Notes under the pieces: model-generated
Told to the model about the DNA's origin: nothing
Seen by the model: only the letters and a program-made list of their open reading frames with translations
Databases searched by the model: none
Shown: piece by piece, positions 1,005 through 48,932 of the stretch
How positions within the stretch are numbered: position 1 is the stretch's first letter
Layout of the letters: every line of letters starts with the position of its first letter
Origin: a bacterium
GTDB taxonomy: Bacteria > Patescibacteriota > Saccharimonadia > Saccharimonadales > SZUA-47
Assembly: GCA_030428125.1 (NCBI GenBank)
Contig: JAUIBF010000001.1
Location: 234,383 to 298,382 of the forward strand
Direction of reading: 5' to 3'
DNA length: 64,000 nucleotides
Program-made: the position numbers and the translations under genes

Positions 1005-1418
1005 ATGGTTAATCGAGTAAAAATAAACGGTCAATTTGAAACCGTTGCTCGATTCAGCGCTCACTACAATGAAGGCTGGAACCAATGTCTCGAAGGTCTA
1101 GGTGCTCTGCAACTAGGCCATTTAATGTATAATCCCGGAGAATTCCCAGGATTAACTGGCGTATATCCGAGAGACTCAGATGTTCATTCCCGGTTTATCC
1201 ACTATTGGACGTCAGACGAAGAAATTACTCATCATAGAGTTTTACATGCTGGCAGGGAATCAATTCAGGCTACGAGTTCCGCTGTGCTTCAATTAGTAAC
1301 AGCAGAATTTGAACCTCAGACGCCGAATTGGCTACAAGAAAAACACACAGCTGAACGTCAGGTATACGGACAAATGCCTACGGAGCTTCCGTCGAGACAA
1401 AGGGTGGGAGTAGCTTAA
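1005..1418 (+). CDS. hypothetical protein (orphan, 137 aa, 2 Lys)
   Basis: Long ORF, first of three tightly packed ORFs. No motif recognised. Confidence 0.6.
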   Translation: MVNRVKINGQFETVARFSAHYNEGWNQCLEGLGALQLGHLMYNPGEFPGLTGVYPRDSDVHSRFIHYWTSDEEITHHRVLHAGRESIQATSSAVLQLVTAEFEPQTPNWLQEKHTAERQVYGQMPTELPSRQRVGVA

Positions 1419-1419
1419 A

Positions 1420-2004
1420 ATGGTATTTCAGTCCCTCGAGCCAACACCAAACCTAGACGGCGCAGACAGGGCTGAACAGTACAGAGAAATGGATAGAGCC
1501 GACAGAGCAAGAATACTTTATGAGTCATTCATGCACGCAGATGATGACGAATTGTATATAGGCGACGAGGTGGGGGTTAAGGGGCTTCTGGTGTATCTAG
1601 TGGGGACCTACGTTTCACACAGGGGCGACGAGATAGCAAGTACGCATATATCATTCTCACCACCCACGAAAAAAATTACTTGCACCACAGACTTGGTGAG
1701 TATTTCGTCAGATGGAAGTGATGCGCCTACATTGGACTCGGTTGCTAGGCTTGGTCTAGAGATATTGAGAGAAGAGTACGGAGCGGAAGAAGGAGACCCT
1801 AGGTTCGCTGATTTAGGGTCATTCTGCATGGCCGAGGATATTTCGATTCGTAGTCTCCCAGAATCCCTAACATCTGTTCCTCAAATCGGAGCCATCGAGT
1901 GGCTCGCTGCTCATAGATCACCCGAGCTAGCAGAGGTGCGAAAGCTACCAGTAGCTTATGTGGACGGATCAGACGTAGTACAGGCAGTAGCAGTAGGCAA
2001 TTAA
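1420..2004 (+). CDS. hypothetical protein (orphan, acidic, 194 aa)
   Basis: ATG lies 1 nt after the upstream stop. GGGTGGGAG Shine-Dalgarno-like sequence upstream. No motif recognised. Confidence 0.6.
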   Translation: MVFQSLEPTPNLDGADRAEQYREMDRADRARILYESFMHADDDELYIGDEVGVKGLLVYLVGTYVSHRGDEIASTHISFSPPTKKITCTTDLVSISSDGSDAPTLDSVARLGLEILREEYGAEEGDPRFADLGSFCMAEDISIRSLPESLTSVPQIGAIEWLAAHRSPELAEVRKLPVAYVDGSDVVQAVAVGN

Positions 2005-2006
2005 CT

Positions 2007-2273
2007 ATGTATTTACAAAATGTAGGAATCGAAGCGCCCCAAGGAACTGGTGGGGGTGGCTACCGTGTTGAAAGAGGAATAACTCCCGGGGTTGCTATCG
2101 TGACAAAAGATCCATCCGAATTTAGTGTAATAAGAGAAATAGGAAGTAGTCCAGAAGTAGATATCAGAAGCATGAAGATAACCGAATCTATAGGATATGT
2201 GACAATACCCCAACCAGTTAATGTGGACGCGTTACCCGATTGCGCTCGTGTACTATTTGCTGTTGCTGCGTAG
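2007..2273 (+). CDS. hypothetical protein (orphan, 88 aa)
   Basis: ATG lies 2 nt after the upstream stop. Contains a GTGGGG glycine run. No motif recognised. Confidence 0.5.
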   Translation: MYLQNVGIEAPQGTGGGGYRVERGITPGVAIVTKDPSEFSVIREIGSSPEVDIRSMKITESIGYVTIPQPVNVDALPDCARVLFAVAA

Positions 2274-2333: not shown

Positions 2334-3635
2334 ATGCTAGACAAAATTCAGAGGGTTAAGGATAGTGTTCTAGAAAAAACTAGAGCGCGAACTGACAAGG
2401 TTGCTGAACGCTACATTGTGGCTTTAGATGTAGGAACGGAAAACGTGAAAGCTCTGATTGGCAAAATCAACGGAAATAACGTAGATATCATAGGAGTTGG
2501 CAAAGCCCATCAGGGTTTATCAGATATGCAAGCAGGTGCTGTTGCTGATATTGCCGCTGTTACTGCTAACTGCAACGAGGCATTGGCTCAAGCTGAAGAA
2601 CAGGCTGGGGTTAGTGCACGTGCAGTAGTAATTGGAATTGCTGGCGAACTAGTCAAAGGCACAACCATATCTGTTAGGGTTTCCCGGAAAGACGGCAAAA
2701 AACCTCTAGAGGTAGAAGAAGTTGAAAAGATTATTTCGCTTGTCCAAAAAAGAGCTTTCGAGAAAGCACGCAAGCAAATTGCTACCGAATTGGGTGGCAA
2801 AGAAGTCGACGTCCAGTTGGTTAATAGTGCGCTAGTGCGAATGGAGATTGATGGCTATGCCGTCACTAACCCTGTAGGGTTTCAAGGAAAAGAAGTCACA
2901 GTACAGCTTTACACAGCTTTTGCACCGTTGATTCACATCGGTGCACTGGAGCAAGTTGCCACACAACTAGACATGGATTTGCTGGCAGTTGCTGCAGAGC
3001 CTTTCGCGGTTGCCAGATCAGTTGTCGGTGATGACACGGAATCGACCTTTAGCGCTGTTTTAATGGATGTAGGTGGTGGGACTACGGATATCGCAGTCTT
3101 AAATGAGGGTGGAGTCCAAGGGACAAAGATGTTTGGCATTGGTGGACGTGCATTTACTAGGTCGGTTGAGCGTGAGCTGGACATTTCATTCGACGAAGCA
3201 GAGACAATGAAATTAGCGTTAGGAAAGGGTGCATTATCTGAGTCTAAGCGAAAGACTACCGAAAAAGCCCTGGGTAAAACAGTAAAAGTTTGGCGTTCAG
3301 GTGTCGAACTTGCTCTAGAAGAGTTTCAGAATCTAGATCACCTGCCTCATAACATTCTACTTTGTGGTGGTGGTGCTTCCCTGCAACTGCTGATCGATGA
3401 GCTAGAACAGTCTAGCTGGTATAGAAGTTTGCCGTTTGCAAAAAAACCAACGGTTAAATATATTTCACCAGAAACAGTCTCTGGGATAATTGATACAACT
3501 GAAAATCTCGATGATCACACATTCATAACTGCCATGGGACTTTTAAGAGTAGGAATTGATACAATAGGACAGACAGATGCCGATGATGACTCAGTAAGCA
3601 TCGGCGACAGAATAAACAGAATTTTAAGAATATAA
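2334..3635 (+). CDS. ftsA: actin/HSP70-fold ATPase, FtsA-like cell division protein
   Basis: Phosphate-binding motifs ALDVGTENVKALIG and VLMDVGGGTTDIAVL, plus ILLCGGGASL. Overall FtsA-like motif order. TGaTACAAT box at 2316-2324. Confidence 0.6.
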   Translation: MLDKIQRVKDSVLEKTRARTDKVAERYIVALDVGTENVKALIGKINGNNVDIIGVGKAHQGLSDMQAGAVADIAAVTANCNEALAQAEEQAGVSARAVVIGIAGELVKGTTISVRVSRKDGKKPLEVEEVEKIISLVQKRAFEKARKQIATELGGKEVDVQLVNSALVRMEIDGYAVTNPVGFQGKEVTVQLYTAFAPLIHIGALEQVATQLDMDLLAVAAEPFAVARSVVGDDTESTFSAVLMDVGGGTTDIAVLNEGGVQGTKMFGIGGRAFTRSVERELDISFDEAETMKLALGKGALSESKRKTTEKALGKTVKVWRSGVELALEEFQNLDHLPHNILLCGGGASLQLLIDELEQSSWYRSLPFAKKPTVKYISPETVSGIIDTTENLDDHTFITAMGLLRVGIDTIGQTDADDDSVSIGDRINRILRI

Positions 3636-3638
3636 ATT

Positions 3639-5285
3639 ATGGCAAACAGCACAAAAGATACAGTTTATATAGATGTCGAAGATGAAATAACTGCTGTAAT
3701 TGATAAAGTCGTAAATGCCAAGCACAAAATTGTAGCGTTAGTTTTACCTAAACGAGCTACAGTGTTCCAAAGTCCGGTTAACATGAAGTTGCTCCAAAAA
3801 GCAGCAAAATCTGCCAAGAAAAGTTTGGTTTTGATTACTTCCGATAAAGGGATTCTAGCGATCGCAGCTGTAAGTGGTGTTCATGTTGCTAAATCTCTAA
3901 CCACCAAACCTGAAATTCCCAAGATTGAACAACCAGAGGAAAACATCGAAGAGAGTGTAGACTTAACCGGAGCAGCTATTGCTGGCGCAGCCGGAGCAGC
4001 AGCTGTTGCCGCAAGTACAGATGATAAAGATGAGGCTATCGAGCTAGATAATACTGACGAAAGAGCTATCACATCTGACGAAAAGCCAAAAAGTGGCAAG
4101 AAAAAACTGATGAAAATACCTGATTTCTCAAGCTTTAGGTTAAAGGTTGGCCTAGGAATTGCTGGAGTAGTGCTTCTCGTAGTTCTGTGGTTTGTGGCTT
4201 TTGTTGTTATGCCTAAGGCTACCGTGACAGTAAATACCGATACTTCAACCACTAGTGTAAATACTCAAGCTATATTCCGAGTAGGTGCAGAAGAAGTCGA
4301 TGTTGAAGAGAACATAATACCGGCTGAGCGAGTACAAGCAGAAAAAATTGATAGCATAAAAGTACCAGCTACCGGCCAAAAAGACATAGGCGAGAAAGCT
4401 ACGGGCACATTGACACTAACCAACTGTATCGACGACGGTGAACAGAAAGTCGTTCCTGCTGGAACAAGATTTACAAAAGACGGACTAACATTTGTAACTG
4501 CTGAGCAGGTAATATTGCCGTTCGCTATCGTTGCAGCCGGTGACTGTATCAGCGCAGATTTCGGAAGAAGCCGGGACGTAGATGCTGTTGCCGAAGAAGC
4601 AGGACCTCAGTACAACATATCCGAAGGTAGCTATAACTCCAGCATAAGTGGCATACAAGCATATGGGTCGGATATGAGTGGTGGAAGCTCTGAGATTGTC
4701 AAAGTAATTTCCGATGAAGATGTGCAAAAAGCCGAACAGCAGCTAAAAGGCACCAGCAAAACAGCTGCACTTAACGAAATGAAGTCACAATTAGAAGAAT
4801 CAGGGAAGACACCGGTCGAAGAAACTCTGGCAGAAGGAACTCCGAAAACAACCGTAGTTCCGGCAGTAGGAAAAGAGGCGGACGAAGTTGAAGTTACCAT
4901 AACTATCACCTATAACTTACAAGGTGTTAACGAAGACGATTTGTCTGCAGTTCTAGATCATGAAATTAATGAAAAGATGGGTGAAGATAAAAAGAACATC
5001 AAAGATAATGGCATAGAGGCAGTTAGATTCCAGGTAAGCGATAACTCTAATGAGGCAGACACTAACGTCACGCTTCAAACAGTTGCAACGCTGGGGCCAG
5101 ACATAGATGAAGCTGCCTTAAGAGAGGAGATTGCTGGAAAAAAACGTGGTGATATCGAAAAGCAAATCGAAGAAATTGATGGAGTTAGATCCGTGAGCGT
5201 AGAGTATTCTCCTGCCTGGGTTACTACAACTCCTAAAAGTGCCGATAAGATAACAATAGTTTTTAACGAACCAGATGAAGAATAA
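3639..5285 (+). CDS. single-pass membrane protein with large beta-rich C-terminal domain, function unknown
   Basis: Cytoplasmic N-domain, Ala/Gly/acidic linker, TM helix (GIAGVVLLVVLWFVAFVVM), then a KATVTV...ATGTLTLTN...VPAGTRFT segment. That segment resembles, from memory, baseplate-J-like annotated proteins of CPR genomes; this was not verified. Confidence 0.6.
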   Translation: MANSTKDTVYIDVEDEITAVIDKVVNAKHKIVALVLPKRATVFQSPVNMKLLQKAAKSAKKSLVLITSDKGILAIAAVSGVHVAKSLTTKPEIPKIEQPEENIEESVDLTGAAIAGAAGAAAVAASTDDKDEAIELDNTDERAITSDEKPKSGKKKLMKIPDFSSFRLKVGLGIAGVVLLVVLWFVAFVVMPKATVTVNTDTSTTSVNTQAIFRVGAEEVDVEENIIPAERVQAEKIDSIKVPATGQKDIGEKATGTLTLTNCIDDGEQKVVPAGTRFTKDGLTFVTAEQVILPFAIVAAGDCISADFGRSRDVDAVAEEAGPQYNISEGSYNSSISGIQAYGSDMSGGSSEIVKVISDEDVQKAEQQLKGTSKTAALNEMKSQLEESGKTPVEETLAEGTPKTTVVPAVGKEADEVEVTITITYNLQGVNEDDLSAVLDHEINEKMGEDKKNIKDNGIEAVRFQVSDNSNEADTNVTLQTVATLGPDIDEAALREEIAGKKRGDIEKQIEEIDGVRSVSVEYSPAWVTTTPKSADKITIVFNEPDEE

Positions 5286-5709
5286 CCAAGAACAGCCACT
5301 AGAGGGTGAGTTGATCGGCCTTGATATTGGCGAGAAAAATATTGGAGTTGCTAGAATTAGTACTTTCGCAAGAATAGCTGAGCCCCTGGAAACTATTAAC
5401 GCAAACTTGGATGCATTTACAGCCATTTTGACAGCTGTTAAAGAACATGATGCTGTAGCAGTAGTAATTGGGCTGCCAAGGGGCTTAGATGGGCAGGAAA
5501 CAGCTCAGACGGCAAAAATTAGACAGTTTGTATCTGAATTTTCTAAAAAAACTGACAAACCGTTATATTTAATTGATGAAGCAGGTACGACAAAGGAAGC
5601 AGAAAAAAGATTAACATCAAATCCGAGTGCAAGTATTGATAGTCTTGCAGCTACCATATTTTTGGAGGATTTTGTGTCATCCGACAAACAATCCCTAATG
5701 AGGTATTAG
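5275..5709 (+). CDS. ruvX: Holliday junction resolvase-like nuclease YqgF/RuvX
   Basis: LIGLDIGEKNIGVA N-terminus, VVIGLPRGLDGQET, and DEAGTTKEAE near the C-terminus. Confidence 0.85.
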   Translation: MKNNQEQPLEGELIGLDIGEKNIGVARISTFARIAEPLETINANLDAFTAILTAVKEHDAVAVVIGLPRGLDGQETAQTAKIRQFVSEFSKKTDKPLYLIDEAGTTKEAEKRLTSNPSASIDSLAATIFLEDFVSSDKQSLMRY

Positions 5710-5712
5710 ATC

Positions 5713-6786
5713 ATGTCAAGATTTCACGTAGATCGTCAGCATCGTCGAAGAGGAAGGGTAAATTTCTGGATAGTACTCCTGCTTTTACCACTGCTTACCC
5801 TACTGGTAGTGTCGTTCAGTTTTGCCTACTGGTACCAGTCCAATCTACAACCATTGTCGGAGCACACGTCAGAGGTAATCGTGAACATACCTGAAGGGGC
5901 ATCAGCAGGCGAAATAGCAGAGTTACTAGAAGAAACTGGTGTTATAAAATCTAGTTTTGCATTTGATTTATACACAAGATTAAATGGTCATCGCAATGAT
6001 TTGCAGGCCGGAGGCTATAAAATTTCGCCGAATAGCAGTGTCCAAGAGATAGTAACACGACTGGTGAACGGTGATGTGGCGACAGATTTAGTCATAATAC
6101 TACCAGCAAGAAGAATAGATCAGGTTAAATCAGATTTTATTAATTCTGGATATGAACGAGACGAGGTGAACGCTGCGTTTAACCCTAAAAATTTCGTAGA
6201 CCACCCTGTCTACAAATACATTCCCAACGGCGCAACCCTAGAAGGTTTTATATACCCAGACAGCTATCAGAAAACTACCCAAACCGAAGCAATAGAGATT
6301 TTAACTATCGCGATGGATGAGCTGGACGAAGTAATCACTCCCGAGTTGACTCAAAAGTTCGCCGAACAGGGCTTAACGGTTTTTCAGGCAATCACCCTTG
6401 CTTCGATAGTTGAGAGCGAGGTGCCTGCTGCTTCTGGCGATAGGGCTACGGTTGCACAGGTTTATTTAAAGAGGCTTGCTGAGGGAATGCCACTGCAGGC
6501 CGATCCTACAGCCCAATACGGTACACTTCTAGCTACGGGTACTGCAGATGACTGGGCAAATTACGATACGCCGTACAATACCTATCTGTATACTGGATTA
6601 CCTCCTGGTCCGATCTCAAACGTCAGTGCATCTTCTCTTGAAGCTGTCGCTTACCCGTCAAATACAGACTATCTATTCTTTGTAGCTGATGACGATGATG
6701 ATAATGTTACACATTTCTCCAGAACTTTTGCTGAACATGAGGAGAATATTGCTAAATATTGTCAGGTGAAATGCAACAGCTACTAG
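5713..6786 (+). CDS. mltG: endolytic murein transglycosylase MltG (YceG-like)
   Basis: N-terminal TM anchor. LQAGGYKI, ASIVESE and YNTYLYTGLPPGPISN motifs. Confidence 0.85.
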   Translation: MSRFHVDRQHRRRGRVNFWIVLLLLPLLTLLVVSFSFAYWYQSNLQPLSEHTSEVIVNIPEGASAGEIAELLEETGVIKSSFAFDLYTRLNGHRNDLQAGGYKISPNSSVQEIVTRLVNGDVATDLVIILPARRIDQVKSDFINSGYERDEVNAAFNPKNFVDHPVYKYIPNGATLEGFIYPDSYQKTTQTEAIEILTIAMDELDEVITPELTQKFAEQGLTVFQAITLASIVESEVPAASGDRATVAQVYLKRLAEGMPLQADPTAQYGTLLATGTADDWANYDTPYNTYLYTGLPPGPISNVSASSLEAVAYPSNTDYLFFVADDDDDNVTHFSRTFAEHEENIAKYCQVKCNSY

Positions 6787-11371: not shown

Positions 11372-11818
11372 TTAGTTTGGTTTATTGCGTCTTGATGCCG
11401 GTCGTACTTTTTTATCCAGCCAAATTATACGGTCTCTATTGAGCATAAAAATAGTAGTAGAGCCTGCTAAAATCAAGTAACTGAATCCTTTCCAGAACCA
11501 GCCTTCGGCAACAACATTGAACCAAGTTCCGCCTACCAAACAAACTACAACAAAAATATCCCAAGCCCATTTAACCCAAGAGATGTCGGGGAAGAAAACG
11601 TGGCGTAGAGATTCGCTGCGAACTTTTGCATAATGCAACCATCTATCAGCCCAGTCATGATTTGCGGCAAGCAAGCCCAGGCCCGCGATTAACAGAGGAA
11701 TTCCACCCGGCCCAGGCAGGGGCCCCAGTAGTGGTACAAGAATCAAACAAATAACTCCTGCTATGTCGGTGAGTATGATTTTTATCACACTATTTCGTCG
11801 TTCTTCATCTTTTGACAT
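11372..11818 (-). CDS. PGPGW-motif transmembrane protein
   Basis: LLGPLPGPGGIPLLIAGLGLLA motif. Three to four hydrophobic helices. Confidence 0.6.
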   Translation of the reverse strand: MSKDEERRNSVIKIILTDIAGVICLILVPLLGPLPGPGGIPLLIAGLGLLAANHDWADRWLHYAKVRSESLRHVFFPDISWVKWAWDIFVVVCLVGGTWFNVVAEGWFWKGFSYLILAGSTTIFMLNRDRIIWLDKKVRPASRRNKPN

Positions 11819-11914
11819 GTACTCTAACAGTATACTTTATAACTTTTACACTTGTGAAAGAATAAATCTCTGCTACTCTAAGGGTAAGTTCAAGTGTAAA
11901 ACAAAGAGGTTAGA

Positions 11915-12718
11915 ATGCACACGAGACACATAAACAGAAATCCTAGGGGCGGATTGTACCCCGGGAGAAGAGAAGTTGATACTAGACCAGATATTGAGTC
12001 AGTGAAAGTTCCAAGTGTAAAGATAGGTCGTTATGTTGATTTTAGTGGTGATGGGGTGCTGTTCGCCAACTACCTTAGGCGACTAGAACTAGATGAAGGC
12101 AACGCTAGAGGACTCTCAAAAGGATGGTTCTCAATAGCCATGTCACCTATTTTTGTAGAGTACGCAGACATAACAACAGGCTTAGGTGAAATGCTGGTTG
12201 ATAGAGCAAGACCTCGAACGTATGCAGGCGAAGTTCGCAGAACCGTTGAAAGTTTACGCACCAATATAAGAGGTATCACAGCTAGCGACAGTGAGAGAGT
12301 AGATAAACTTAATGCATCAAGAAAAGAAGCAGTCGCAACGGCTATAGCAAATGGCGATCATGTTGATGAGATTCAAGAATTTTCCTGGCTGCATGAACCG
12401 GAGTCATCAAGATGGGGTACATCGTTATTTAGTCTTTTAAAGCAGCCCAAGGTTATGGCTACAAGTGGGAGCACCACTGCACACGAATACGGATTTCCGA
12501 TAGCGCAAGGCTTACAAGACCAGATTTTACGAGATGATCTTGCAGAGTTAATCAAAAGCGAAGGCTTACCACTACCTGAGCAAATGCAAAAAGGAAAACG
12601 ACCGGTAGTGCCAGCATTGTCTCTGCACAGAGAATTGTCAGGAATGGTGGGAGGAGAGCCAGTTTTGCCAGTTCCTCCTCAAGTACAGCTCGGACCACTA
12701 GAAATTCATCGATTTTGA
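11915..12718 (+). CDS. hypothetical protein (orphan, 267 aa)
   Basis: Long ORF with AGAGG Shine-Dalgarno-like sequence upstream. No motif recognised. Confidence 0.6.
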   Translation: MHTRHINRNPRGGLYPGRREVDTRPDIESVKVPSVKIGRYVDFSGDGVLFANYLRRLELDEGNARGLSKGWFSIAMSPIFVEYADITTGLGEMLVDRARPRTYAGEVRRTVESLRTNIRGITASDSERVDKLNASRKEAVATAIANGDHVDEIQEFSWLHEPESSRWGTSLFSLLKQPKVMATSGSTTAHEYGFPIAQGLQDQILRDDLAELIKSEGLPLPEQMQKGKRPVVPALSLHRELSGMVGGEPVLPVPPQVQLGPLEIHRF

Positions 12719-12760: not shown

Positions 12761-13441
12761 ATGGCAAGAGTAGCAATATTTGAAACATATGCTCCGGTGC
12801 ACTTTGACGGCGAAGAAGATTTTTTCGGTAGAGTCACTGCACTAGTGAGAGACCACCTAGATGATAATAGGTCATCTGGTGGTGTTGTCACGCGAACAAG
12901 CGATAGATTGATTGCTGGCGTAAGCAACCGAGCACAAGTTTTCAACGAGGGCAGGTACTACTTCGGCAGACTATTAGTTCCCAATGTTACGCACAACAGT
13001 AGAAAATTGGACCAAATTCGCGATCAGCTTCTTGAACCAGATGGTGCATACACTAAGTTTGCCGGTGCTCTTATGGAGCTGACAATTGATAAAATTTCAA
13101 CGGTTGAAATTGGAACAGCAGCAGGCAGAAACACATTGATTGTTGCCGGTAATTCCAGACAACTAGATCCAGACATCAAAGTAGTTGATAACTCACTTGC
13201 AGAGTACACAGATGTAGTTGTGGATGCGACTAATAACTTAGTGAGGAGAAGGCAGTCAATGGAAGGCGCTAGTTTTAATACCCTTAATGGCTGTATGCCG
13301 ATTGCCTCTCTAGGCAATGTTGCAACTACGGGTATTGATACCGAACTGCTGGTCAAGAACATAGGTGAATTGGTCGAGGATCCACTAGAAACCTTTGTAG
13401 AGATACCGCAGGATGGTCTGGTGACAGTACTCAAGAGTTAA
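12761..13441 (+). CDS. hypothetical protein (orphan, 226 aa)
   Basis: Long ORF preceded by TGGTATAAT. No motif recognised. Confidence 0.6.
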   Translation: MARVAIFETYAPVHFDGEEDFFGRVTALVRDHLDDNRSSGGVVTRTSDRLIAGVSNRAQVFNEGRYYFGRLLVPNVTHNSRKLDQIRDQLLEPDGAYTKFAGALMELTIDKISTVEIGTAAGRNTLIVAGNSRQLDPDIKVVDNSLAEYTDVVVDATNNLVRRRQSMEGASFNTLNGCMPIASLGNVATTGIDTELLVKNIGELVEDPLETFVEIPQDGLVTVLKS

Positions 13442-35143: not shown

Positions 35144-36268
35144 ATGTCAGCGACAGCAGTAGCAATTTTATCGGCAACAAGTGTTTTAGGTGCAGGTTCT
35201 GCTTATGTAGGTCACGAGATGATGCAGGATCATCCTGAAATTAGTGGTAATAACTGTGTAGATATGTCAGGCATTCCACTAGAGGACGCATTTGCCGATC
35301 CGAGTGTTTCTAGCATTCAGCAAGCAATTATGGATAAAGCCGGTATAGAAATCATCGGAGGTGCAGATGGTGATTTTGGTCAGGCTAGCTGTATTGCTTT
35401 TGGTCTCGCTCAAGAAGCTCTTGGAGTTACAGTTGATTACAAATTCGGTCCTGAGTCGGCAGGAGCACTGGGAATTGATCTGAACAATATATTTCCGAAC
35501 AGTGACTTGGCTTCAGATGCTGACGCGGTAGAAGGTACTCAGGTTTCTGTGCCAACAACTGAAGATATCGAGTGTAGGAACATGGATGGCGTGCCTGCAG
35601 AGTCAGGATATACAAATGGCGCAATTCTGCAGATTCAGACAGCTCTTGACTCCCACGGTTACGGTAGAGGTGGAGTAGATGGTAAGTTCTTAGACCTAAC
35701 TTGTGATGAAGTCGTTGCTTTTCAGCGTGCTAATAATCTTACTGTAGACGGTATTGTAGGTCCCGCTACAGCAAGAGCTCTAGGCATAAATTATGAGTCA
35801 CTAGTTTCTGGTAGCATAGCTAGTCAGAAAGAATTTGAGCCAGAAATTGACTGCCCAGCTGCAAGTAGCTGTGACATCGAAGTAAATCTAAATACCCAAA
35901 GACTGCATATCACAGACGGCTCTGGAAATATCATTTGGGATAGACCAGTTCAGAGTGGTAAGCGAGGTTATGAAACCCGAAACATCCGAAGCACTTTAGG
36001 TCATGTCGAGTATGGTGAAGGTGGTAATCCTGAACGGCCCAGCGTTGATTATCCAGAAGCAATACTAGTAAATCCCAGGGGCTTTGGAAATGGTGGACAA
36101 AAGTTTCACGGGTCCTATAGTTTTAATGCTTGGGCAGTAGATAGTCCTGATTCTGGTAGTGCTGGATGTGTCCGTCTAGAGATTGGCGACTCTTATACCT
36201 TTGCCAAAATGCCAATCGGTACCAGTGTCTTGCTTTTTGGAGCAAAGCCCGGAACAACGCAACGATAA
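35144..36268 (+). CDS. L,D-transpeptidase (YkuD) with peptidoglycan-binding repeats
   Basis: PG_binding_1-like repeats (GADGDFGQAS, VDGKFLDLTCDEVVAFQRANNLTVDGIVGPAT). Catalytic HG...SAGCVRL motif near the C-terminus. Confidence 0.85.
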   Translation: MSATAVAILSATSVLGAGSAYVGHEMMQDHPEISGNNCVDMSGIPLEDAFADPSVSSIQQAIMDKAGIEIIGGADGDFGQASCIAFGLAQEALGVTVDYKFGPESAGALGIDLNNIFPNSDLASDADAVEGTQVSVPTTEDIECRNMDGVPAESGYTNGAILQIQTALDSHGYGRGGVDGKFLDLTCDEVVAFQRANNLTVDGIVGPATARALGINYESLVSGSIASQKEFEPEIDCPAASSCDIEVNLNTQRLHITDGSGNIIWDRPVQSGKRGYETRNIRSTLGHVEYGEGGNPERPSVDYPEAILVNPRGFGNGGQKFHGSYSFNAWAVDSPDSGSAGCVRLEIGDSYTFAKMPIGTSVLLFGAKPGTTQR

Positions 36269-41938: not shown

Positions 41939-42535
41939 ATGCTAGTTAATGCTGAAACGGGTTTTGTTCACGGGTTTGATATTTATAAAGAAGGATCCTC
42001 AGTTCCCGTAGATATTTTTGTTGGTCATGTCATTGTTGCAGATTGCAGTGTTATCTTGCCAGTCCACTCAAGGGATATGCTAATAGGATTGTCCACTCCA
42101 CTAGGAAGACCGATGCTGGCATCCCATCTTTCTGATAGGATTGAGACGCTAAAAAAACCAGTCAATGTAAACAAAGTTTACGCGGATCTTCAAGAGAGAT
42201 TTGAGGGGACGCCATTAGATGGTCATCTTGTAAGCTTAAGACCAGAAACAGGTGGCCGATCAACCTGGTACGGGATGGTAGATGAAGTTTCGGATGAAGC
42301 ATTGTTAGCATTCGCAAATGAGGGTGAAAGGATTGTCCGTGATTCGAAGACAAAAAAGGGGAAGAGCCTGGACAGACGCCTAGCTCCATTTGTATCATTG
42401 CGTGAATCAATAGATAACCCCGAGCTTGCTGACGAAATAGAAGCTAGTCATCATCTGGGTATTGCATTTGTTACCGCAGGCATTCTAACTTTAGGAACCG
42501 TAGCTACTATTGCGCTTATGAAGAGGGCTAAGTAG
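41939..42535 (+). CDS. hypothetical protein (orphan) with C-terminal TM anchor
   Basis: Long ORF with a C-terminal helix IAFVTAGILTLGTVATIALM. No motif recognised. Confidence 0.6.
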   Translation: MLVNAETGFVHGFDIYKEGSSVPVDIFVGHVIVADCSVILPVHSRDMLIGLSTPLGRPMLASHLSDRIETLKKPVNVNKVYADLQERFEGTPLDGHLVSLRPETGGRSTWYGMVDEVSDEALLAFANEGERIVRDSKTKKGKSLDRRLAPFVSLRESIDNPELADEIEASHHLGIAFVTAGILTLGTVATIALMKRAK

Positions 42536-42580: not shown

Positions 42581-43390
42581 ATGAGTAATTTTATTGCAGA
42601 GGTTAATCTGTGGAACGGAAGAGGCGCCGAAGGTAGACTGCGTGTGACTACTGGCTTTGAAGTCATGGCTGGCGACACAGTACTTAGCGATGTGAATGTG
42701 ATAGGTGGTTTGGCGATGGCTACGCTGATTAATCATCGAGACACACTTATTCCTAAAAGTGGTTTATTACCGTTAGTAGACACAATTGGGTTAGGGCACA
42801 ATCCACTTGATGATCTGGATCCTAAGTTAAATAGACAGAGTAAATTGACCAGAGGTGTTAATTCCTACAGAAGGGCACTACGTAACCCGTTTGCGAAGAA
42901 TGTCTTGCTGTTAGGGTCTGAAGTAGCTTCTGGGCAATGCTGGTATTTCGCAACTGACTTGAGAGACAAGGAGGCAGTTGTTGAATCAGTCACAAGACAG
43001 TCCGTAGAGGAGAGTGGTATCCCTGATGCTGACGCTGTAGTAAGGAGCGTTACGGAAATGTTCGACAAGAAAGGTTCTGGTCACCAAAGCACACCTAAGC
43101 CAAGAGTAGCTTGTTCAGACCGGCCCGAGGAACGGCTTAGGGGTTTTAGGGTGTTAAGACCGGCAACTGCAGCAGACAACAACGCTTTTTTAGACTTTAT
43201 CAAAGGAAGCGAGCCAGGTACTGAAATATCTGCATCTGCTATCGAGGCTTGGAAAGTAGCTAGGGGTATTAGCAGTATGGAGACAGATAAAATTCTCTTC
43301 GTTGCTAGTGGGTTAGATCTGGTTAGGTACAATACAAGGCCTCCAGAAAAACCAGGAAGCTCCTCAGAAGTTATATTTATACGGCAATAA
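42581..43390 (+). CDS. hypothetical protein (orphan, 269 aa)
   Basis: Long ORF. No motif recognised. Confidence 0.6.
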   Translation: MSNFIAEVNLWNGRGAEGRLRVTTGFEVMAGDTVLSDVNVIGGLAMATLINHRDTLIPKSGLLPLVDTIGLGHNPLDDLDPKLNRQSKLTRGVNSYRRALRNPFAKNVLLLGSEVASGQCWYFATDLRDKEAVVESVTRQSVEESGIPDADAVVRSVTEMFDKKGSGHQSTPKPRVACSDRPEERLRGFRVLRPATAADNNAFLDFIKGSEPGTEISASAIEAWKVARGISSMETDKILFVASGLDLVRYNTRPPEKPGSSSEVIFIRQ

Positions 43391-48269: not shown

Positions 48270-48932
48270 ATGGGAAATATTGAAATTGCTCCAGAGCTTG
48301 ATAGGAGCTTAACTGCACTCCAGGTCTTTAGACGTTTACATGTTGCAGCAGAAGTTCCGTTTGAAACAGCAGCCGAACTACAGGGAATCGATCTTCAGGA
48401 TACCAGCACCTGTCGGGTGTCACCACAGGTTGGCAATACTGCTGTTTTGATGACAAGATTTCTAGATAGAAGTTACGGTAGTAAGCATAGGATGATACGT
48501 ACAATACACTTGCAACCAACAAACTCTAGTGTACCTTTAATGCAAGTCAATAGAGTCGGAAACAATGGTTCATATGTGGCACGTAGTGTTCAGGCATATC
48601 CACACCTTGAGATAAATGGATTGCGAGTGTACTCTTCTCGTCTGGATAGCGAAGAAGTAGTCTTCAATTTCGATGTATTGCGAAAATCAGCAGAAGAACT
48701 AGCTAAGCAGTCTCGGACTTTAATTCCTGTCGGATATGGCAGAGTTGTTGCTGCTGATGGAATGACACTTGACGAAATGACTGAAGAGGACTTTGCGACC
48801 GTAAACTCTGTTAATAGAGTGATTAGGATTACTGCCGCTGCGGCAGTAACTGCTTTGGGTGGCGCCAATCAAAGACATCTACTTGACGAGATGAACCTTA
48901 CAGCTAGAACTTCGGTTTCCTTGTCCGAGTAG
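48270..48932 (+). CDS. hypothetical protein (orphan, 220 aa, 3 Lys)
   Basis: Long ORF between rnc and rpsP. No motif recognised. Confidence 0.55.
   Translation: MGNIEIAPELDRSLTALQVFRRLHVAAEVPFETAAELQGIDLQDTSTCRVSPQVGNTAVLMTRFLDRSYGSKHRMIRTIHLQPTNSSVPLMQVNRVGNNGSYVARSVQAYPHLEINGLRVYSSRLDSEEVVFNFDVLRKSAEELAKQSRTLIPVGYGRVVAADGMTLDEMTEEDFATVNSVNRVIRITAAAAVTALGGANQRHLLDEMNLTARTSVSLSE

Follow-up and report, generated by a model that had tools for sequence, protein, structure and literature searches.

What are three short genes doing between alaS and the gene for an FtsA-like protein when none of them belongs to a recognizable family? The question is raised by a 64-kb stretch of genomic DNA (contig JAUIBF010000001.1, positions 234,383 to 298,382, here called the window, with coordinates counted from its first nucleotide) from a member of the order Saccharimonadales within the Saccharibacteria (TM7). 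Saccharibacteria are epibionts with reduced genomes, and their lineage-specific biology is thought to reside largely in unannotated genes. The three open reading frames (ORFs) and the two genes that bracket them are as follows (aa, amino acids; pI, isoelectric point).

1-695, + strand: 3' part of alaS, cut by the start of the window; Pfam tRNA-synt_2c/tRNA_SAD in orthologues
1005-1418, + strand: ORF1, 137 aa, pI 6.0, ATG start; optional add-on gene, first 70 residues highly conserved
1420-2004, + strand: ORF2, 194 aa, acidic (pI 4.4), ATG start; core gene of the locus, from a narrow, fast-evolving family
2007-2273, + strand: ORF3, 88 aa, pI 4.7, ATG start; singleton, called as coding from statistics only
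2334-3635, + strand: FtsA-like gene (Pfam FtsA), the conserved right flank of the hotspot

With some reserve, ORF1-ORF3 seem best explained as a lineage-restricted accessory cassette that occupies a hotspot of gene turnover between alaS and ftsA in the Saccharimonadales. The evidence comes from the distribution of the relatives of these genes, from the variability of the gap in which they lie and from the exchange of its contents between near-identical flanks.

Relatives of the three genes and the alaS-ftsA gap

The FtsA-like protein of the window has 436 relatives in the Saccharimonadales, the best at 83-85% identity. The families of the three small proteins are far narrower. A search space of about 15 billion proteins contains three relatives of ORF2, namely P0005 (56% identity, 188 aa), P0006/P0007 (36% identity, 187 aa once the start is corrected) and a partial copy in locus L082, where the contig end cuts the gene after the N-terminal 65 residues (54% identity). 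ORF1 has a single relative, P0003 (54% identity), which occupies the same position in L082; the gene is absent from L083 and L089. For ORF3, no relative was found in this protein set, in the loci of the relatives or in the metagenome, phage, plasmid and IMG/VR collections. Profile searches of six-frame translations of 89 loci and the window yielded no further family members or paralogues. The exact sequence of ORF2 is also present in the Logan assembly of run ERR3428546.

All the relatives of ORF1 and ORF2 lie between alaS and the FtsA-like gene, in related Saccharimonadales. The three genes are not conserved as a unit, an outcome that a first-pass annotation of this DNA had named as counting against its own reading: the homologue of ORF2 is the sole gene of the gap in L083-L088, is followed by an unrelated 74-aa gene in L089-L092 and, in L082, follows an ORF1 homologue across the same stop-A-ATG junction as in the window. 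Reading frames are intact in four lineages, with the ATG kept directly after the upstream stop, and the start codons are conserved in L082. The 74-aa partner gene of L089 has no similarity to ORF3 (BLASTP), and hhalign comparisons of the window ORFs with all the other hotspot ORFs gave no probability above 2.3%. The distribution is patchy, given that L003 and L002 (85% and 83% FtsA identity, respectively) lack ORF1-ORF3, whereas the more distant L089 (70%) carries ORF2. The locus is anchored by ORF2, whose family of acidic cytoplasmic proteins is tiny, evolves rapidly and is seen only at the alaS-ftsA site; ORF1 is an optional addition in front of it, and ORF3 a singleton.

The gap itself is variable across the group. 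Of 80 species-level loci, 74 have alaS directly upstream of ftsA; the two genes are 41-134 nucleotides (nt) apart in 25 of them and 293-4217 nt apart in the other 49. The longer gaps hold at least one ORF, mostly on the + strand, and these ORFs form many small families that are unrelated to one another and to ORF1-ORF3 by BLASTP, hidden Markov model (HMM) and hhalign comparisons. Most of them match nothing in Pfam, the exceptions being a cupin, an isochorismatase and an Asn-synthase-like protein. Conserved flanks thus enclose variable content, as expected of an accessory hotspot flanked by core genes, and no integrase or transposase was found among the relatives' hotspot ORFs or their called neighbours. 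Chromosomal hotspots, or 'flexible genomic islets', between core genes are a general concept of comparative genomics. The site described here resembles them in that syntenic alaS and ftsA genes bracket a variable segment (41 nt to 4.2 kb) with mostly orphan cargo and mosaic identity. It differs in being tiny (one to three genes), in having no tRNA, integrase or other hallmark of a mobile element and, in one clade, in placing the cargo behind a conserved leader, a palindrome plus a putative promoter, that persists while the genes change.

The exchange of cargo is most clearly seen in a comparison of L005 with L089. The two loci are 96.8% identical over 1.5 kb of alaS and leader, and this identity vanishes across the first cargo gene, an unrelated 141-aa gene in L005 and an ORF2 homologue in L089. 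Similarity then resumes in a shared gene of 74/75 aa, with a synonymous divergence (dS) of 0.16, and falls to 79% through ftsA (dS about 1.4). Such mosaic identity is the pattern expected from recombination in conserved flanks, and the low dS of the 74/75-aa gene compared with that of ftsA points to a recent transfer of the segment that contains it. Different relatives hold different cargo in the slot, and here one cargo has taken the place of another while the flanks stayed nearly the same. Natural competence is a trait of Saccharibacteria (PMC10633639), and the cargo may be exchanged via homologous recombination in the conserved flanks. The shared 74/75-aa gene is itself an orphan (9156-9380 in L089, about 5726-5953 in L005); its product contains the motif '...LRLGG...', ends with 'GGGGL' and is not homologous to ORF3.

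The 8-mer AAAATGGT occurs at 1002-1009 and again at 1417-1424, spanning the start codons of ORF1 and ORF2, and does so likewise in L082; in L083, the leader is joined directly to the ORF2 homologue at this point. The repeats may mean that microhomology allowed ORF1 to be gained or lost precisely, or simply that the two genes share a start-codon context, and the argument does not rely on them.

Coding status, selection and family searches

ORF1-ORF3 are genuine protein-coding genes. Their coordinates are as first annotated, with three same-strand ORFs of 137, 194 and 88 aa separated by 1 nt (ORF1-ORF2, TAA-A-ATG) and 2 nt (ORF2-ORF3), and they lie on the + strand like almost every gene of the window. 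Together they cover 99.8% of 1269 nt, compared with a maximum of 57% in 2000 dinucleotide-preserving shuffles, none of which produced an ORF of at least 194 aa. The codon log-likelihood of each ORF is highest in the annotated frame (0.11-0.16); the other frames score from -0.2 to -1.05, with the sole exception of an antisense frame of ORF3 (+0.04). All three ORFs display the GC1>GC2>GC3 periodicity of the genes in this genome, and their codon scores fall at the low end of those genes (0.22 +/- 0.05). In the case of ORF3, which is overlapped by long antisense ORFs, the score is 0.11 compared with -1.05 and -0.82 in other frames, and GC1/2/3 is 0.58/0.47/0.28. ORF2 has a GC content of 49%; that of the genome is 42 +/- 2%.

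An AGG/GGAG-type motif of the Shine-Dalgarno kind precedes each of the three ATG codons by 9-10 nt. These motifs, together with the retention of the ORF1-ORF2 junction in L082, agree with the tight packing and coupling noted earlier, and the three genes are probably co-transcribed and translationally coupled. The predicted products have pI values of 4.4-6.0. None of them contains a transmembrane segment, in line with the initial annotation: the maximum Kyte-Doolittle (KD) hydrophobicity over 19-residue windows is 1.1. The same annotation described the products as strikingly poor in Lys within a Lys-rich genome. The counts on which this was based, 2 of 137 residues in ORF1 and 2 of 88 in ORF3, are correct, and ORF2 has 4 of 194, so that the three proteins contain 1.5-2.3% Lys against 6.7 +/- 2.6% in 37 long ORFs of the window. 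The contrast with the rest of the genome was overstated, however, because the ORFs at 48270-48932 (1.4%) and 35144-36268 (2.1%) are equally poor and the ORF1 homologue of L082 has 6 Lys; the low Lys content is a trait of the lower tail of the distribution and is not unique. Several further mid-size ORFs of the window (12761-13441, 11915-12718, 41939-42535 and 42581-43390) can be listed with these two, some of the six being Lys-poor (1.4-2.7%). With the exception of 35144-36268, they were scanned in Pfam, and none of these five belongs to a family; orphan genes of odd composition are frequent in this genome.

Selection acts on the two genes that have comparators. For both ORF1 (window against L082) and ORF2 (window against L083), the proportion of nonsynonymous differences (pN) is 0.31, compared with saturated proportions of synonymous differences (pS) of 0.7-0.8 (0.82 for ORF2). 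For ORF1, the nonsynonymous divergence (dN) is 0.40 and dS is 1.9, so that dN/dS is about 0.21 (NG86), with a pN/pS of 0.43. Because pN lies well below saturated pS and dN/dS is low, the proteins are constrained, and ORF1 and ORF2 are under purifying selection. A dN/dS near 1, which had been named as a possible sign of decay, was not seen, pN/pS being well below 1 for both genes. ORF2 nonetheless changes fast: in the window-L083 pair, its dN (0.41) is 7.4 times that of FtsA (0.055; 92% aa identity). The GC content of the homologues follows that of their own host genomes, which argues for long residence rather than recent import.

The initial finding that no family is recognizable in the three ORFs was borne out by searches of four family collections and of the PDB. 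None of the three matches Pfam, NCBIfam, PHROGs or the known anti-phage defence systems of PADLOC (PADLOC-DB v2) at E<=1, and the members of the ORF2 alignment have no match in Pfam. Sequence and profile searches of the PDB returned only noise, with best E-values of 0.3-0.8 (TIM, polyamine oxidase). At E<=1, tblastn found no match to ORF1-ORF3 among the INPHARED phages and PLSDB plasmids, and no relatives of these genes were detected among IMG/VR and JGI metagenome contigs. Structure prediction, suggested earlier as a check, was carried out for ORF1 and ORF2 with AlphaFold2; on the tiny alignments available, the mean predicted local distance difference test (pLDDT) scores were 36 and 43, respectively, and the models are unusable.

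The conserved leader and the ftsA boundary

Between the end of alaS and the start of ORF1, and again immediately before ftsA, the following features were distinguished.

879-903, + strand: terminator-like palindrome CACTACATGTAGTG followed by a CTTTTC tract; inverted repeat conserved in L082, the probable end of the alaS transcript
919-934, + strand: perfect palindrome TGTGATATAAATCACA (TGTGA-N6-TCACA), a candidate operator or activator site
956-961, + strand: -10-like hexamer TAGTGT, exactly 21 nt after the palindrome
967-1004, + strand: conserved 5' leader TAACCTTAAG ... AAACAAAnAGGTA, from alignment with relatives, with an AGG Shine-Dalgarno-like motif at 992-994
2316-2324 (within 2316-2333), + strand: extended -10 of ftsA (TGaTACAAT), 9 nt 5' of the ATG, inside the conserved palindrome GCATATGC

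The palindrome at 919-934 is the only perfect copy in the window. Its GTGA-N6-TCAC core is invariant in seven lineages (the window, L082, L083, L089, L005, L003 and, in a variant arrangement, L050), where it stands before different cargo, and the perfect TGTGA-N6-TCACA form is present in the window, L003, L005, L089 and L050. A TAnnnT hexamer follows at the identical distance of 21 nt in six lineages (the window, L082, L083, L089, L005 and L003). The composite motif (palindrome, 20-22 nt, TAnnnT) occurs in about 1.07 Mb, both strands included, only in this leader and in one stray minus-strand match in L050. Three copies with one mismatch elsewhere in the window were considered as members of a regulon and rejected, as they lack the promoter layout.

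Behind the leader lie ORF1-ORF2-ORF3 in the window, ORF1-ORF2 in L082, ORF2 alone in L083 and ORF2 with the 74-aa gene in L089, but also the unrelated 141-aa gene with the 75-aa gene in L005 and two unrelated ORFs (88 and 79 aa) in L003. Because unrelated cargo lies behind the same palindrome, the gene for its binding protein must lie outside the cargo. The L050 palindrome is followed by a canonical TTGCAA-16-TATAAT promoter and another orphan gene. This locus (4274-6000) is unusual in that alaS is missing, the order being mnmA, the palindrome, the TTGCAA-16-TATAAT promoter, a 147-aa Trp-rich orphan ORF and ftsA.

In class II CRP/FNR-dependent promoters, the activator site is centred at -41.5, with the consensus TGTGA-N6-TCACA in E. 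coli. The leader matches the CRP half-sites exactly, keeps a fixed 21 nt to the TAnnnT hexamer and has no recognizable -35 element; a transcription start near position 968, 7 nt after the hexamer, would place the centre of the palindrome at about -41.5. The leader differs from such promoters in that there is no other site of this kind in the 64 kb and in that the L050 variant has a 28-nt spacing and a proper -35 element. The cassette would then be transcribed as a single unit from an activator-type promoter without a -35 element, under a regulator encoded by the host rather than by the cassette, and its three genes would be translated by coupling.

At the other end, an extended -10 (TGnTACAAT/TATAAT; 2316-2340 in the window) is likewise found before ftsA in all the relatives that were inspected (L083, L089, L005, L003 and L050). 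Its position 9 nt before the ATG suggests a leaderless or near-leaderless ftsA mRNA. With the terminator-like palindrome upstream and ftsA's own promoter downstream, the cassette appears as an independent unit.

The arrangement calls to mind integron arrays, in which, as here, unrelated and often orphan ORFs are exchanged in a promoter-proximal slot while the upstream platform stays constant. The alaS-ftsA slot differs in having no integrase nearby and in an exchange that resembles homologous recombination in the flanks; moreover, attC hairpins are impossible with spacers of 1-2 nt, and no suitable inverted repeats are present at the ORF boundaries. A bolder reading, which we regard as unlikely, is that in one clade the alaS-ftsA gap is an activator-controlled 'expression slot', with a fixed operator and promoter and with orphan cargo, the ORF2 family included, swapped by natural transformation and recombination in the flanks, in effect an integrase-free mini-integron that would diversify factors for interaction with host bacteria or phages.

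Irrespective of that reading, the locus offers several handles: an ORF2 family at one address, a testable, conserved regulatory sequence before interchangeable cargo and a replacement of cargo seen directly between flanks that are nearly identical. Should the leader prove to be a genuine promoter that depends on an activator, the phylum would gain one of its few defined regulatory elements, and genetics in these naturally competent bacteria a natural site of insertion and expression; otherwise the locus is an ordinary orphan-gene islet. The palindrome-promoter slot and the unclassified structured RNA next to it (see below) are the more interesting by-products of the analysis.

Alternative explanations and neighbouring features

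What the cassette does is the most speculative part of the interpretation. The products could be non-enzymatic binding or modulator proteins with a part in conflict or host interaction, similar to immunity or anti-defence proteins, with ORF2 acting autonomously and ORF1 and ORF3 as lineage-specific partners. Such a role draws only on rapid evolution, patchiness and turnover.

Several observations weigh against the interpretation as a regulated accessory cassette. Nothing in the sequences suggests a role in conflict, given the empty PADLOC, Pfam and PDB searches and the unusable AlphaFold models. ORF3 has no comparator, and the case for it is purely statistical. Genes without a family are no rarity in this genome: among 10 other mid-size ORFs of the window that were tested, 5 have no match in Pfam, so that the slot could merely tolerate neutral cargo. 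The -10 hexamer is a prediction, and so, therefore, is the -41.5 geometry, and in L050 the palindrome and the hexamer are 28 nt apart, not 21. A phmmer search with E. coli CRP found no CRP/FNR-family regulator in the window or in about 1 Mb of syntenic loci, a result that is uninformative because these cover a small part of the genome; ten mid-size ORFs of the window scanned in Pfam included no member of this family either. Literature searches on Saccharibacteria hotspots or CRP regulators yielded nothing specific. Both the cassette and its putative promoter are known here from sequence alone.

Four other explanations were weighed, and each of them fails at least one direct test. Small size, tight coupling, rapid evolution, cytoplasmic products and a patchy, islet-type distribution are all shared with tripartite toxin-antitoxin(-chaperone) modules and with orphan immunity clusters, and the upstream palindrome might be an autoregulatory operator. 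That ORF1-ORF3 form an addiction module, with a toxin, an antitoxin and a chaperone or regulator kept by post-segregational killing, is nevertheless improbable: there is no match to toxin or antitoxin families in Pfam, NCBIfam or PADLOC and no adjacent toxin gene or polymorphic-toxin locus; the products are acidic or near-neutral, with no basic DNA-binding partner among them; the partners are optional, ORF2 standing alone in L083-L088 and next to an unrelated gene in L089-L092; and the palindrome is kept before unrelated cargo in L005, L003 and L050, which places its binding protein outside the cassette. We give as little credence to the possibility that the three proteins serve cell division in a lineage-specific way, as regulators or accessory factors whose target would be the neighbouring FtsA-like protein, by analogy with fast-evolving division inhibitors such as SulA, YneA and SidA. 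Small, fast-evolving proteins behind a putatively regulated promoter would suit such a role, as would a location directly upstream of ftsA, the position of FtsQ/DivIB in many bacteria. Unlike the FtsQ/DivIB of dcw clusters, however, ORF1-ORF3 have neither a POTRA/FtsQ match in Pfam nor a hydrophobic segment; furthermore, they are absent from most relatives, including the close L002 and L003, ftsA retains its own promoter, and elsewhere the slot holds unrelated cupin, isochorismatase and Asn-synthase-like genes.

The first-pass annotation tied the operon to an integration scar at alaS, and the genes might accordingly be what remains of the cargo of an integrative mobile element, with the 3' end of this gene as its point of entry. 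In support of such an origin, the 3'-terminal 50-60 nt of alaS are duplicated in the window and likewise in the distant L042, and ORF2 is richer in GC than the genome. The link does not hold: the repeats flank only an element of about 86 nt, with the ORFs outside it, and L082, L083 and L089 carry ORF1 or ORF2 homologues with neither duplication nor element, so the scar is independent of the operon. Considering also that integrases and transposases are missing from the relatives' hotspot ORFs and called neighbours, that phages, plasmids and IMG/VR show no similarity and that the GC of the homologues tracks their hosts, we rate this origin as improbable too. Least probable of all is that the region is non-functional or decaying, made up of spurious ORFs or of the fragments of one larger pseudogene. 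Although known domains are missing, codon scores are at the genome's low end and AlphaFold confidence is very low, the ORF coverage is far beyond that of the shuffles, pN is far below saturated pS for ORF1 and ORF2, the frames are intact in four lineages with conserved placement of the ATG after the upstream stop, and none of the three has a longer protein among its matches. A single pseudogene split by frameshifts was rejected on similar grounds, as there is no longer homologue and each ORF has its own ATG right after the previous stop. For ORF3 alone, a singleton overlapped by long antisense ORFs, decay or spuriousness is a more serious prospect, although still an unlikely one.

The supposed scar is accounted for by a structured RNA-like element that lies outside the operon.

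636-695, + strand: copy A of the duplication (direct repeat), the currently used 3' end of alaS
688-779, + strand: structured RNA-like insert with three helices
782-841, + strand: copy B of the alaS 3' end, now displaced; it represents the ancestral end and, like the alaS end of L082, runs directly into the leader

The two copies are 94% identical over 50 nt (636-685 and 782-831), and copy B aligns to the real alaS end of L082. The insert has a fold z-score of -4.5. A covariance model of the element found nine copies in about 1 Mb of the relatives; of its 26 base pairs, 16 have undergone compensatory change, and pairing holds in 89.7% of the cells, compared with 37-51% when the partners are slid. 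The element, about 90 nt long, has the invariant motifs GGGAAGAG-AGCC and GCGATGAGAAA and no match in Rfam 15; IMG/VR matches to a 17-mer of it proved to be an unrelated phage. The copies in other loci are at the following positions.

L023: 3352-3442, - strand
L042: 5363-5452, + strand, and 11782-11890, - strand
L003: 1581-1671, + strand
L064: 11841-11929, - strand
L057: 1878-1970, - strand
L007: 10945-11039, - strand
L011: 10892-10986, - strand

In L042, the element again lies between duplicated alaS ends (the last 50-60 nt), and in both this locus and the window the picture is that of an insertion that duplicated a long target. Four loci (L064, L042, L007 and L011) have a minus-strand copy about 5 kb downstream of ftsA; the one in L064 is located between ORFs of 351 and 427 aa.

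Downstream of the FtsA-like gene, a 548-aa gene (3639-5285) follows in all the relatives. It has a precomputed Pfam match to Baseplate_J and a hydrophobic stretch, GLGIAGVVLLVVLWFVAFVV; to find such a gene as the conserved partner of an FtsA-like one is unusual.

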